From the NCBI GenBank assembly GCA_046074525.1, contig JBJTOK010000030.1, positions 4,845-68,844 on the forward strand: DNA of 64,000 nucleotides, given 5' to 3'. This stretch comes from Flavobacteriales bacterium (lineage in GTDB: Bacteria > Bacteroidota > Bacteroidia > Flavobacteriales_C > GCA-002722245). Positions 32,671-38,634 of this stretch are shown piece after piece (positions within the stretch are counted from its first letter, which is position 1; each line of letters begins with the position of its first letter). The translations under genes were made by a program, and so were the position numbers. The notes under the pieces are model-generated. The model saw nothing but the letters and a program-made list of their open reading frames with translations. It made no database searches and was not told the DNA's origin.

Positions 32671-32904
32671 ATGAAAAATACTGAAGAGGGAATAATTCCT
32701 GAAGAAATAATTATGGATAAAATTTACTTTATCTGCGGACAAAAAGTAATGCTGGATAATGATCTGGCTGCTTTATATGATGTAGAGACAATGCAGCTTA
32801 AGCGACAAGTAAGACGCAATATTGAACGCTTTCCTAAGGATTTTATGTTTGAGTTGACTCAGGAGGAACTCAATAACTTGAGGTCGCAAATTGCGACCTC
32901 ATAA
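32671..32904 (+). pseudogene. ORF6N-domain gene, 5' part, interrupted by an integrative element
   Basis: GQKVMLDNDLAALYDVET..LKRQVRRNIERFPKDFMFEL...LRSQIATS, followed by a stop supplied by the element end. Confidence 0.9.
32878..32901. repeat. Left att core (palindromic)
   Basis: TGAGGTCGCAA-A-TTGCGACCTCA, perfect 11-bp arms. Confidence 0.88.
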
Positions 32905-33049: not shown

Positions 33050-33355
33050 CTATTCCAATGCTTTTCCACGAAAAACAAGAAATTCTGTTGAGCCAAAGCC
33101 AACACCATGTTCAAGTCCTTTTACTTGGCAAATTTTACCATTCTCTAAACATGGTGTTATTCTCGCAAACAATGTGTCTCCCTCTTGAAATCTTGCGCCA
33201 CTTGAAGGTTTCCGCTTATTGCTTGGAAAACAAAATTTATTTCCATCCTGTAAATCCTTCATCTCAACAAATGAATATTCTTCATTTCCCCTTAAAGAAA
33301 CGGTTGGGCTGATTTGTACAAAATCGGAAAACTTATATTCCTTCCACTCACTCAT
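33050..33355 (-). pseudogene. hsdS: Truncated type I R-M specificity subunit (101 aa, part of TRD1 only)
   Basis: [27 protein letters not shown] and GFGSTEFLV motifs; stops long before the normal ~400-aa length. Confidence 0.85.
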
Positions 33356-34986
33356 TTTTCATTTTGTATTCGTTCAACATCTCTCTCAATATCCTGCAAC
33401 ACGAAATTATAGACGGTTTCTACAATGGATTCTATTTCTTGCGCCGTAAGTTGCTCGTGATACAACTTTTTTATGAATGGTTGTTGGTTGTTGTAGTTGA
33501 CCAATGCGAACCCATACCAATAGGTTTCAATTTTAAAATTGATTTGAAATCCTGAACCAATATCTGCTGTACCGGCTTTTTTTAAGCCGAATAAGCGATA
33601 AGAGAAATACAATTCAAAATTGTTTTTTAAAAATTGTTCGTCTTTCCATCCCTCGGCCAACTGGCTTATGTCGGTGATATTCTTTTCTTTTCCCTGCCAT
33701 TGACAAGTACACGAATAAAATAACTCTTTAACGTCTTTCATTCCTTTAAGCAAGGCTTGATAAAGGGGAAGCACGCTTTTATCAATTATTTCAAATAAAA
33801 TAGCGGTAGTGGCAGTTTGTTTAATACCGTCACCTTTTAGTTGCGCCAATTTTTCTTTTAAAGAATCAAAGCGCTTTTGAGAAGGACTTTTTAGTTCTTC
33901 GTACTCTTTTTCAATTTCGGCTTCCAGTTCTTCAACAGTGGGTAGTTCGCCACGAATATTTTGAGGCAAGAGTTCATTAATCTTGTATTCGGCAATACCG
34001 ATTGGCTTAGAAGAATCACGCAAAGCATATTCCACTACCAAGCCATCTTTGGTTTTGCAAAGAATTAAACCAATGGATTTTTCATCGTCTTTTTGTTTCA
34101 GGTGTTCATCGGCAAGGTTGAGATAAAACTCCATTTTGCCCTTATACTCCGGCTTGAACTCATCTATTTTTAAATCAATAATGATATATCTTTTCAAGCG
34201 GGTGTGGTAAAAAAGTAAGTCGAAAAAATACTCTCGTTCGCCAATCATCACTTTGTATTGTCTTCCCATGAAGGCGAAATGTTGCCCCAACTCCAGTAAA
34301 AACTTTGTGAGTTGATTCATGAGAGCATCTTCCAAATCACGTTCTTTGGCCTCTTTACCGAGATAGATGAATTCAAACTTGTAAGGGTCTTTAAATAATT
34401 GTTGAACCAGTTCGGATTGTTCAGGAGCAATAGTATTTTTAAAATTGCTTGTTATTTTTCCAACTCTTTGGTGTAAACCACCCTCAATTTGATGCACCAT
34501 TACATCGCGGCTCCATCCATTTTGTATGGTTTCCTGTACATAAAACAAGCGAGTTTCTTTGTCTTTAACCTTATCGAGCAGGGTGGTGTGGTGATACCAG
34601 CTTAATTTTGCAAGCGATTCCTGCAAAATCATAACATTTTGAATATCAGTTCTTTGTAATTTTGCAGGCGTGCCCTGCAAAATTGGTAATGTATCGATAT
34701 TTCCCAATTCGGGGTAGGCAAGAGCAAAATCTCTCATGTATCTCAGGTTACGTTGAGAAAAGCCTTTCATATCGGGAAATTCCGTTGATAGGTCTTTTGA
34801 AAGCTGCACTACAACCTTTGCTCCCCAGCCTTTTGTTTTTTCTTGAGCAGAAACAATCATACCGACTTCCCAATACAGTTTTAACAGCTCAACATTGACC
34901 GTAATAGCCGCCTTTGTGCGAGCTTGCCGTATCTTTTCCTTGAGGGTGTTTAATATGTTGATATAATCAGGATGCAATAGGCTCAT
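33352..34986 (-). CDS. YhcG/DUF1016 PD-(D/E)xK nuclease-domain protein with a C-terminal extension
   Basis: LYWEVG, GWG, GFSQRNL..MR.F, LSWYHH, KDPY.FEF, DLLFYH and IDLK motifs. Confidence 0.92.
34603..34684. repeat. Two tandem palindromic sites ATTTTGCA-N9-TGCAAAAT, 54 bp apart, inside yhcG
   Basis: 34603-34629 versus 34657-34683: 23/27 identical, and each site is an inverted repeat. Confidence 0.75.
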
Positions 34987-36556
34987 ATTGAATTTTTTTC
35001 AAGTTGTTTTGAATACGCTTGCTTAATTCGGCTTCTTCGGCAATTTGAGCATCCAATTCTGCTTTCAGTTTGTTAAAGCGTTCGGCGAAATTAAAATCAT
35101 CTTCATCATCAGGCAGCCCAATGTACCTGCCGGGCGTAAGTACATAGTTGAGTGCTTTTACTTCGGCAATGCTTGCACTTTTGCAAAAACCTTGTATATC
35201 CTCATACTTGCCTTCGCCAGTGCGCCAGTTGTGGTACGTTCCGGCAATATCGGTAATATCATCTTTGCTTAAATCGCGGTTTTTACGACTAATTAAATGC
35301 CCGTGATTGCGGGCATCAATAAACAGGATTTCGCCCTTGCGCTGTTTTTTATCTCGGCGAATAAACCACAAACAAGCGGGTATCTGTGTATTGAGAAACA
35401 ACTTGGTAGGCAAGTTCACAATGCAATCAATCAAATCTTTTTCGATAAGAGCCTTGCGAATTTCTCCTTCGTTATTGGTTTTGGTGGTTAATGAACCTTT
35501 GGAAAGAACAAAGCCCGCCATCCCCGTTGGAGCTAAGTGATAGAGGAAATGTTGTATCCACGCATAGTTGGCATTGCCTGTTGGCGGCACTAATTTTTCG
35601 CCCAAAACGCTCCAACGGGCATCGCCTTGTAATAATTCGCCACTCCAATCGCTATCGTTGAACGGTGGATTGGCAATGATATAATCGGCCTTTACATCCT
35701 TATGGGCATCGTTTAAAAAGCTGCCTTCGTTATTCCACTTCACGTTGCTGCTGTCAATTCCACGAATAGATAAATTCATTTTTGCCAACCGCCACGTAGT
35801 TTGGTTGCTTTCCTGACCGTAAATACTAATGCGGTCTTTTGGATTAACATTGAGTTTTCCTTTGTTGTGTTTTTTGTAATAATCCTGATGCGATTGAATA
35901 AATTTTTCACTTTGCGCGAACATACCGCCGCTACCACAGCATGGGTCGAACACGCGCCCCTCATAAGGTTCGAGCATTGATACTAACAAGCGCACTACGC
36001 AGGCAGGCGTATAGAATTGTCCGCCCTTTTTGCCTTCGGCCAATGCAAACTCACCTAAGAAATATTCAAACACCTGACCCAACACATCTTTGCTTTGCGC
36101 TTCTTTAGTACCAATTACAGAAGTGCTTATCAAATCAATTAAAGCTCCCAAGCTTTGTTTATCAAGCTTTTCCTGCGCATATACTTTGGGTAATACTCCT
36201 TTGAGTGACGGATTATCTTTTTCAATAGCGTCCATTGCTTCGTCAATCAACTTTCCGATGATAGGTTGTTTGGCATTGGCTTGTAGATTTTCCCATCGGG
36301 ATTCTTTAGGAACGAAAAAAACTTTCTCGGCAAGGTATTCGTTTTTGTCTTCAGGGTCGGCTCCTTCGTATTGTCCTTTGCCTTCTTTTAAAGTATTGTA
36401 TAATTCATTGAAAGCATCGGAGATATATTTTAAGAATATCAAACCTAAAGCCACGTGCTTATATTCCGCAGCATCCATGTTTTTGCGGAGTTTATCAGCG
36501 GCCTTCCAAAGTTTCTTTTCTAAGGCTTCTTCAACTGCTTCTTTTTTCTTTGCCAT
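34967..36556 (-). CDS. hsdM: Type I restriction-modification DNA methyltransferase subunit M
   Basis: [29 protein letters not shown] and NPPF motifs. Confidence 0.96.
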
Positions 36557-36638: not shown

Positions 36639-38069
36639 TCACATTGTGTTTCTGGGGTCTATCATGGTTTTATTGGGTTGTTTTTCTTGAGTGGAAAACA
36701 CCTGAAACTCCGTACCTCTTGGATGATAACGGTTTTTGCTGGTGATAGCAACGCCATCTTCAACTTTAGCGGCAATATCGGTATCATGAATAATCTCCTG
36801 CGATCCGCGCATTTTGCCGTCTTTAGTGGATTGTGATATGGTGATGAATCCCGATTGCGGGTAGTGTTCTCGTAGTTCTCTCAAGCGTGGCGCATCAATC
36901 TTAAGAGTGTCGAGACTGTCAATGAAAATAAAATGAAATTTATCGTTCGGATTCGGCAGGGCTTTAACCGCATTGGTTTTTCTTTGGTCTCTTACGTGGG
37001 CATATATCTGTGTTGCACTGATACTTTTATGCCCAAGTAGTTTCGATACCGTCCATAAATCACCTTCGGGGCTATTTTCCAAAACATTGGTGGCGAAGGT
37101 GTGCCGCCCAGTATGAAAGTGCATTCGCGGTTTTTCTATCCCTGCTGCTTCAGCCCATAGTTTTAAAGAATAAGAAACCTTTTTATAAATTTTATCTGTT
37201 CCTTCTATTTCCTTCGCTTTCGGGAAAACGAAGAGGCTTTTGTCTTTGTTTTTCTCTTGTTCTTTTTTCCGCTCTTGCAATATTTCAACGGCTTGAGGAG
37301 AAAGCGGAAGGTATTCTATATCCTCCGTTTTTTCCTGCTCAAAATAAATAAACCATTCTTCCTGCCCATCAATCATTTTGGTAATGATTTCCGACCAGCG
37401 CAGCGGATTAACGTCACTCCAACGAAGTCCTGTAAAGCAGGAAAACAAGTAAGCCTGTTTATATTGAACTTCTATGTTATAAGGGGTTTCCCATAATTTT
37501 TGTAGTTCATCAATCGTAAAGGCACTACGAAAGATCGGTTTTAGTTTTAATCTTTCGTGACGGGGAATTTTTCGCATAGGATTTACATATATAATGTCCT
37601 TCCTCACTGCTTCCTCCAAAGCGGTGAAAATTGTTTTTAGGTAATAAATGGTACAGTTGTTACTCACCCTGTTAAGCATGAATTTACTGAACTCTTTAAT
37701 CCAATCGGGGTTTATGGAATGAAAAGGAATAAGTTTGCCATTGGCAAAAGTTTGGAGGTGCTTCAAAGTTTTTAGGTTATTGCGTTGATTCGCCTGCTTC
37801 CCTTTGGCGTAGGTTTCAAACCAAGCTATAAAATCAGCTTTGCGTTTGCTTTTGTCTTGAAGCCCGTTGTCCTGAACAATCAATTCATTTTCTCGCTGCG
37901 ACCTGATTTGTTGAGCAAGCTTTCTTTTTTCTTTGTCCTGCTCGGTCGGACGGTTTTTGTTGATGCAAATGTTTAGAAACTCGTAGCGGCGTTTCTTGTT
38001 GTGGTAAATGTCGAGGTAAAAGGATACTTGACCATTTCCCAACTTTTTTTCTCTCAAATAAACTCCCAT
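36639..38069 (-). CDS. Tyrosine recombinase/integrase (Arm-DNA-binding, SAM-like and catalytic domains) fused to the C-terminal half of a RecA/RadA-like ATPase
   Basis: TGLRWSD (R), QEKT (K), HTGRH, LLGH and TQIY (Y) all present; tail FIFIDSL...ITISQSTKDGKMRGS..IIHDTD. Confidence 0.9.
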   Translation of the reverse strand: MGVYLREKKLGNGQVSFYLDIYHNKKRRYEFLNICINKNRPTEQDKEKRKLAQQIRSQRENELIVQDNGLQDKSKRKADFIAWFETYAKGKQANQRNNLKTLKHLQTFANGKLIPFHSINPDWIKEFSKFMLNRVSNNCTIYYLKTIFTALEEAVRKDIIYVNPMRKIPRHERLKLKPIFRSAFTIDELQKLWETPYNIEVQYKQAYLFSCFTGLRWSDVNPLRWSEIITKMIDGQEEWFIYFEQEKTEDIEYLPLSPQAVEILQERKKEQEKNKDKSLFVFPKAKEIEGTDKIYKKVSYSLKLWAEAAGIEKPRMHFHTGRHTFATNVLENSPEGDLWTVSKLLGHKSISATQIYAHVRDQRKTNAVKALPNPNDKFHFIFIDSLDTLKIDAPRLRELREHYPQSGFITISQSTKDGKMRGSQEIIHDTDIAAKVEDGVAITSKNRYHPRGTEFQVFSTQEKQPNKTMIDPRNTM

Positions 38070-38317: not shown

Positions 38318-38341
38318 TTGCGGTCGCAATTTGCGACCTCA
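38318..38341. repeat. Right att core (palindromic)
   Basis: TTGCGGTCGCAA-T-TTGCGACCTCA, 22/24 identical to the left core. Confidence 0.88.
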
Positions 38342-38634
38342 AGTTGGGGAGGTATTCGTCATCTCCCCATGGCTTTCACCGAACAAGGAGTAGCAATGCT
38401 TTCCAGCGTATTGAACAGCAAAAAGCCATTGAAGTAAATATTCAAATCATTCGAATTCTTACACGAATGAGGGAAATGATGCTTACACATAAAGACATTT
38501 TATTGAAGCTTGAACAAATGGAAAAACAAGTTGCAGAAAATCGTAAAGACGTTCTGTATATATTCGACTTGCTTAAGAAATTGGTACAGCAATCTAATGA
38601 ACCACGGACCAAGATTGGATATAAATTATCTTAA
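38321..38634 (+). pseudogene. ORF6N-domain gene, 3' part (frame change at the A5 run 38420-38424)
   Basis: Reading from 38321 gives [35 protein letters not shown]; the -1 frame continues [16 protein letters not shown]...KIGY. Confidence 0.88.

Follow-up and report, generated by a model that had tools for sequence, protein, structure and literature searches.

The window, by which we mean the whole 64,000-nt stretch of DNA analyzed, contains a 5.4-kb element that carries a tyrosine integrase, hsdM, yhcG and a 101-aa ORF matching no family. The yhcG gene (33352-34986, minus strand) encodes a 544-aa DUF1016 protein with matches above cut-off to PF17761 (136 bits) and PF06250 (200 bits), and is PADLOC candidate PDC-S02. 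Its start is overlapped by the type I restriction-modification methyltransferase gene hsdM (34967-36556, minus strand), with which it probably shares an operon; hsdR is absent from the element. The integrase (36639-38069, minus strand) has arm-binding, SAM-like and catalytic domains. The 101-aa ORF (33050-33355) follows yhcG and is cut off at the left end of the element; it presumably resembles the start of an HsdS. The left junction of the element (32878-32902) is a palindrome at the end of the 5′ half of an ORF6N gene (32671 onward), and the right junction (38318-38342) is a near-copy of it that opens the 3′ half of ORF6N, which is frameshifted and extends to 38634. The junction palindromes are 25 bp long and alike at 22 of 25 positions, and the two halves of the gene match ORF6N profile positions 2-63 and 54-86. 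The claim made in the preliminary description of this DNA, that the flanking ORF6N gene was split at its own palindrome, is thus upheld, and the split looks like a single event. GTAACA repeats lie inside both ends of the element, and arm-type repeats occur only at these ends.

The pattern ATTTTGCA-N9-TGCAAAAT occurs exactly twice in the window, at 34605-34629 and 34659-34683, 54 bp apart, against an expected count of 0.00 in 100 shuffles; a third copy is absent elsewhere in the 3.69-Mb genome. Both units lie in frame in yhcG. The first in gene order (unit 1, 34659-34683; half-site TTTTGCA) encodes ILQGTPAKL, residues 102-110, and falls in a low-confidence linker of the AlphaFold model (pLDDT <50 at residues 100-110). 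The other (unit 2, 34605-34629) encodes ILQESLAKL, residues 120-128, and occupies the canonical place of the family, its 7-bp arm stopping 6 nt before the Trp130 codon. Judged from the comparisons below, each is a likely YhcG binding site. The pattern search of window and genome confirmed the pair as it was originally described, identical arms included, but the spacers, which had been called different, are still identical at 5 of 9 nt and partly self-complementary. Consecutive pairs number 11 in the 34659 unit and 8 plus 1 in the 34605 unit. Single perfect 8+9+8 palindromes are not rare (210 in the source genome); what is beyond chance is the pair together with its family-wide conservation, not one such palindrome alone. 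Between the units is the IHF-like motif ATTCAAAATGTTA (34632-34644, minus strand), which the preliminary description had pointed out and which is one mismatch away from the consensus. The window holds 111 such matches against 127 expected, and the motif was found in only 3 of 30 inter-unit segments of the family arrays, so that it is a chance match and no part of the system. Four DNA read runs from one study, one of them possibly of the source, contained no joint or inversion at the yhcG palindromes, which weighs neither way.

YhcG consists of an N-terminal DUF1016_N domain (residues 15-174), with a predicted ParB/KorB-like DNA-binding fold, followed by a PD-(D/E)XK nuclease domain of NucS/EndoMS-like fold (YhcG_C, residues 195-349; match to NucS/EndoMS at Z 8.9). 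The extra 180 C-terminal amino acids (33352-33890) have no Pfam or NCBIfam match; two relatives, L082 and L083, likewise have long open frames (551 and 592 aa). In the AlphaFold model, helices 57-69 and 78-90 form a helix-turn-helix with residues 79, 82 and 83 at the start of the second helix, the first palindromic unit is disordered, and a helix (130-139) begins at W130. The codons for Q78-R79-N80-L81-R82-Y83, at the start of the predicted recognition helix, lie at 34738-34755 (minus strand), and those for W130-Y131 at 34594-34599 (minus strand). Fold searches were performed with a single-unit N-terminal model of the relative L030 (pLDDT 92). The top VIA matches (Z 6.2-4.9) included Spo0J (1vz0; Z 6.2, rmsd 2.5, 89 residues aligned), ParB-parS (6s6h; Z 6.2, rmsd 5.2, 103 aligned), KorB (8qa8; 5.3), SopB (5.0) and StbA, and Foldseek returned Noc-NBS (6y93) with probability 0.93 and TM 0.52. 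These matches are middling, with Z of 5-6 and Foldseek E above 0.3, and Raf1 and unrelated helical proteins rank among them; a PDB sequence search with the family profile gave nothing below E 0.3. The N-terminal CTPase domain of ParB is absent: Pfam gives only DUF1016_N and YhcG_C, and the first 52 residues are modeled as one long helix. In Caulobacter ParB, according to the available text of PMC7383237, specificity is set by R173 and G201: an early recognition-helix arginine and, 28 positions further on, a residue of a second helix, as we propose for YhcG. The distance from R79 to Y131 is likewise 28 residues in 70 of 135 genes, and from this shared spacing, rather than from a residue-level alignment, R79 and Y131 may correspond to R173 and G201.

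For the family-wide analysis 180 genes were anchored, drawn from 80 GTDB loci, 401 genomes of the phylum and 2 viral loci, while 16 without an anchor were dropped; at <80% identity they left 135 representatives. Genes of the yhcG type are present in 135 of the 401 genomes of the phylum, and among viral contigs at 2 loci only. In most of the genes examined, an odd-centered palindrome of 23-25 bp lies in frame within the DUF1016_N coding region, with one half of that region on either side of it. A perfect in-frame 7+9+7 palindrome (7/7 arms) was found in 79/135 genes, against a mean of 1.2 and a maximum of 4 in 200 rounds of synonymous recoding; with arms of at least 6/7 the count was 108/135 (recoded mean 12.7, maximum 21). 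Even among the 27 genes below that cut, most pair at 8-9 of 11 positions. The palindrome is carried by Bacteroidota, Cyanobacteriota, Pseudomonadota, Deinococcota and methanogenic archaea, among others. One unit is present in 81 genes, two in 19 and three in 8, the multi-unit genes being mostly from this phylum. Both arms change together, giving 32 kinds of perfect half-site, and the inner positions 8, 9 and 10, which were not selected on, pair in 124, 130 and 105 of 143 units. The 25 bp can be read as 9+7+9, but pairing runs to within 1-3 bp of the center. There are 89 kinds of spacer in the 143 units, and nine spacer pairs are exact reverse complements of each other. Thus the copy-number variation, arm conservation at the DNA level (silent positions included) and spacer hypervariability that the preliminary description had proposed to look for in yhcG homologs are all present. 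Units read in a second frame inside yhcG were seen in L066, L074 and L095. Arrays of differing half-sites, only some of which fit the current helix, were seen in L346 (a Segatella plasmid), L085, L087, L090 and L215, and these are possibly a record of specificity switches. Allele-matched copies outside the gene were found at only 2 of 40 loci (control 0), namely at -3110 in L039 and at -309 in L069, and none in the source genome; this is too few to call such copies promoter operators.

The bases of the site vary together with residues of the protein that the gene encodes. When 276 alignment columns were ranked by mutual information against each half-site base, residue 79 was the top predictor of position 5 (z 9.4): with R79 the base is G in 68/71 cases, and without it in 2/37. 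Positions 9 and 10 are best predicted by residue 131 (z 6) and position 7 by residues 83 and 82; for position 3, residue 82 is the runner-up. No helix residue stands out as partner of positions 4 and 6, where the top columns are V59 and D65, and residue 83 adds nothing at position 6. Independent pairs were taken from a tree built without the helix and linker sequence. On this tree the traits change 25 and 22 times, and for residue 79 with position 5, 14.8 of 16 independent pairs agree, with 0.2 opposite (sign test, p 1.2e-4). The association of G131 with inner AC gave p 0.012, and the residue-82 rules had too few independent pairs (p 0.06). In leave-one-out prediction the residue outperformed the nearest relative at position 5 (92 vs 64 of 108), position 9 (88 vs 63 of 102) and position 10 (74 vs 59 of 83). 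The codon for residue 131 is 9 nt from the canonical unit, and linkage may therefore inflate its signal. The left-arm position-5 base is four-fold silent, and it is G in 70/73 units with R79 and in 2/38 without, against a background of about 21%. Units off the canonical place also follow the rule in 56 of 65 cases (R with G 36, R with another base 6, non-R with G 3, non-R with another base 20). Together, the tracking of residue 79 by a silent base and the obedience of displaced units argue against a contact inside the protein.

A held-out set of 16 previously unused plasmid genes from four phyla, picked from 40 listed matches, obeyed the 79/5 rule in 15/16 cases (R79 with G 7/7, non-R with non-G 8/9). 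The sole miss is L346, a mixed array in which the middle unit alone fits; the residue-131 rule missed twice in this set. The window's units agree with the rules at four positions (R79-G5, R82-T3, Y83-CA, Y131-G9). Three further genes share these residues, and one or more units of each have this half-site as well. Exceptions are L044, L066 and mixed arrays such as L085 and L346. By covariation, then, this is a palindromic site with bases that depend on residues of the recognition helix (79, 82 and 83 with positions 5, 3 and 7) and of a second helix (131 with inner positions 8-10).

The same design was found in two further families. In ORF6N genes a 25-bp palindrome, read in one or the other of two frames, lies just after the helix in 41/48 genes (null 0.14); the base at site position 9 is determined by a single helix residue in 44/44 cases (E-G, Q-A, R/K-C), a small sample. 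RhuM genes, again a small sample, carry a palindrome in 22/26 cases (null 0.72) with similar residue-base rules. One ORF6N gene, L335, contains a pair of units that share a core but are read in different frames. The split ORF6N gene of the window (32671-32902 and 38318-38634) breaks its own rule: its helix Arg elsewhere predicts GC at positions 8-9, and both junction palindromes have CG. Perhaps the host site was overwritten by the element, or the halves, of which the 3′ one is frameshifted, have decayed.

We interpret the palindromes as probable binding sites of YhcG itself, placed within the stretch that encodes its DNA-binding domain; working from sequence comparison, we put the probability of this reading at roughly 0.7. 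Through these sites YhcG would most likely limit its own expression. The two-fold site implies a dimer, and it is probable that a YhcG dimer binds its own gene. Residues 79, 82 and 83 of the recognition helix, in an N-terminal domain predicted to fold like the DNA-binding domain of ParB, KorB and Noc, would read the outer arm, and residue 131 in the second helix would read the inner bases. Given binding, the odds are slightly in favor of bound YhcG blocking transcription about 300 nt into its own gene. As a rule, a protein bound at one intragenic site obstructs transcription only weakly. With a roadblock, a potentially harmful nuclease could cap its own dose behind any promoter at which the mobile gene lands, here the hsdM operon; extra copies, as in the window, would increase occupancy and leave some latitude during a change of specificity in protein and site. 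Template switching is a mechanism that operates at palindromes, and the symmetric arm changes and inverted centers probably stem from it. The context fits cargo in need of dose control: the gene is a PADLOC candidate, hsdM-like genes flank 14 of 80 yhcG loci, and, in the available text of PMC9881135, DUF1016 and RhuM are enriched beside phase-variable restriction genes, with programmed-inversion targets such as hsdS.

The preliminary description had proposed instead that the yhcG palindromes are integrase attachment sites, whether nested recombination targets, scars, an attB array or decoys, which let mobile elements stack in cargo genes. The 9+7+9 length and shape do fit a tyrosine-recombinase core, which has two inverted arms around an overlap of 6-8 bp, and the ORF6N palindrome of the window served as an insertion site. 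Orphan 3′ yhcG fragments start exactly at the palindrome, upstream of another yhcG, in one related set (L097, L111, L132), a 5′ fragment ends near a palindrome in L147, and the few out-of-frame units noted above can be counted on the same side; the site may now and then be a deletion breakpoint. However, among 40 truncated yhcG candidates from the 401 genomes (20 C-terminal or short-frame and 20 N-terminal-only, among 150 matches listed per search), none had an integrase element inserted at its palindrome, the integrase of the window being the sole query and several contigs being short. These genes were broken by frameshift, by deletion or by an IS lying away from the palindrome. For ORF6N the corresponding count was 0/15, with no related integrase there. 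Upstream ends of 28 integrase relatives and 3 more lay in neither yhcG nor ORF6N palindromes. These ends, taken at 29 loci (the window's own included) and at 2 copies in its own genome, showed other repeats and tRNA genes, with no yhcG among them; a metagenome scan for integrase targets gave 1 locus. Close relatives of the integrase (55-62%) abut repeats or tRNA genes at G000:C33 (866-1500) and C66 (83170-83820), and short repeated palindromic sequences or tRNA genes are likewise abutted at L157, L158, L160, L161, L153 and L163. We take these repeats to be REP-like, and it seems that integrases of this clade have core sites adapted to various abundant repeats. Attachment sites of the attP type were not found around the yhcG units, where IHF-like motifs are at chance level and arm-type repeats are lacking. 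Finally, the palindrome follows the helix residues of YhcG; nothing would cause the target of an integrase to do so, and the attachment-site idea does not account for this covariation. Of the two observations by which the proposal was to be judged, palindromy is indeed conserved at silent sites, which it survives, but integrase insertions there are missing from the 40 truncated candidates, and we consider an attachment-site role very improbable. The wider scheme that linked yhcG with ORF6N describes a real pattern, extending to RhuM, but its common cause is most likely self-recognition and not the stacking of landing pads.

Three further alternatives accept or dispute the binding itself. The intragenic site could be a DNA antidote or dock that holds the nuclease inactive, a self-immunity like that of BstA and aba, with loss of the site or a mimic on invading DNA releasing the nuclease as a defense that guards the restriction operon. 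All the covariation evidence applies equally to this idea, as do the PADLOC assignment, the hsdM-like neighbors and the enrichment beside inversion targets, and cognate DNA-protein immunity pairs are described for BstA in the available text of PMC8585504. Against it, 1-3 sites per genome could bind no more than a few molecules of the protein, in trans aba required a high copy number, and the word palindrome does not occur in the text available from that paper. We regard docking as rather unlikely, and a transcriptional roadblock as more likely than nuclease docking or self-immunity. A self-perpetuating quasi-palindrome would need no binding: template switching would keep the arms complementary and invert or duplicate the unit, and the residue-79 link would be intraprotein co-evolution or linkage. 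The nine reverse-complement spacer pairs and the inner positions that stay paired while varying speak for it, and the right-arm position-5 base does alter the amino acid (Ala/Gly/Asp). Yet the rule holds in 31 genes with the palindrome off the structured position and in extra linker copies, the ORF6N rule holds across two reading frames, the outer arm follows distant helix residues and not the adjacent residue 131, and it would take more than mutation to hold the feature in one position across archaea and many phyla of bacteria; we give this explanation hardly any credence. The least probable reading is an mRNA hairpin controlling translation or stability. Strong stems are present in nearly all genes, but on the sense strand G:U mismatches are not above A:C (G:T vs A:C in the DNA, 32 vs 35 at position 11 and 4 vs 13 at position 10), and it is sequence, not pairing alone, that tracks the helix residues. 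Inner positions that pair without a G:T excess point to symmetry of double-stranded DNA and not to a hairpin in mRNA.

If the palindromes are YhcG binding sites, the nearest known systems are ParB/Spo0J-parS, Noc-NBS and KorB-OB (6s6h, 6y93, 1vz0, 1r71), which share with YhcG the palindromic site and, as far as modeling indicates, the DNA-binding fold. Unlike them, YhcG has no CTPase domain, no ParA partner was seen, and it is fused to a PD-(D/E)XK nuclease; its 23-25-bp odd-centered site lies in its own gene only (outside copies at 2/40 loci), doubles as coding sequence for part of the binding domain and exists in dozens of specificities. Single cases are known in which a protein has its binding site within its own gene. 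A parS lies inside B. subtilis spo0J. The ori iterons of phage lambda lie in gene O, in the stretch that encodes the linker of their own binding protein, but these are direct-repeat iterons of a replication origin; lacO2 and galOI are intragenic operators bound by the protein of another gene. Controller (C) proteins of type II restriction-modification systems regulate their own operon, which includes a nuclease gene, by way of tandem palindromes, the C-boxes. These lie upstream of a separate small gene, whereas in YhcG binder and nuclease are one protein with sites in its frame. We know of no family-wide residue-base code with the palindrome inside the binding domain's own codons. The attB sites of tyrosine integrases in coding genes are likewise palindromic DNA within frames, although no insertions were seen at the yhcG site. 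BstA/aba resembles YhcG, according to the available text of PMC8585504, in joining a defense-type protein with an HTH-type domain to a cognate DNA element in its own locus, with variant-specific elements. It differs in that aba is 63 bp long, has terminal direct repeats and overlaps the gene start, and BstA is KilA-N-like; direct binding is not shown in the text available from that paper either. Rickettsia palindromic elements are also in-frame palindromic DNA, but they are described in the available text of PMC4316617 as scattered selfish inserts of 100-150 nt, in contrast to the position-locked 25-bp unit of yhcG. No description of the yhcG palindrome was found in the main texts of the full-text articles searched, and the available portions of PMC13371061, PMC10111431 and PMC12988329 hold nothing bearing on it.

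On balance we lean towards regarding YhcG/DUF1016, ORF6N and RhuM, unrelated families of mobile DNA-binding proteins from defense islands, as 'self-addressed' genes. Each would encode, inside its own DNA-binding domain, the palindrome that its product recognizes, following a code from residue to base that can be read off and that allows dozens of orthogonal specificities. Such a site would make the gene a promoter-independent self-limiting or self-immune cassette, arrays would log specificity switches, and integrases would occasionally exploit the palindromes. If this is true, it gives a first concrete activity and target to a widespread uncharacterized family, and also to ORF6N and RhuM, and each target could be tested with a 25-bp oligonucleotide read from the gene itself. 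One stretch of DNA would then be both an operator and part of the code for the binding domain, a constraint that is rarely considered. The natural protein-site pairs would form a large ready data set for rules of protein-DNA recognition, from which orthogonal repressor-operator pairs could also be drawn, and they hint at the way in which toxic cargo genes may stay safe behind foreign promoters.
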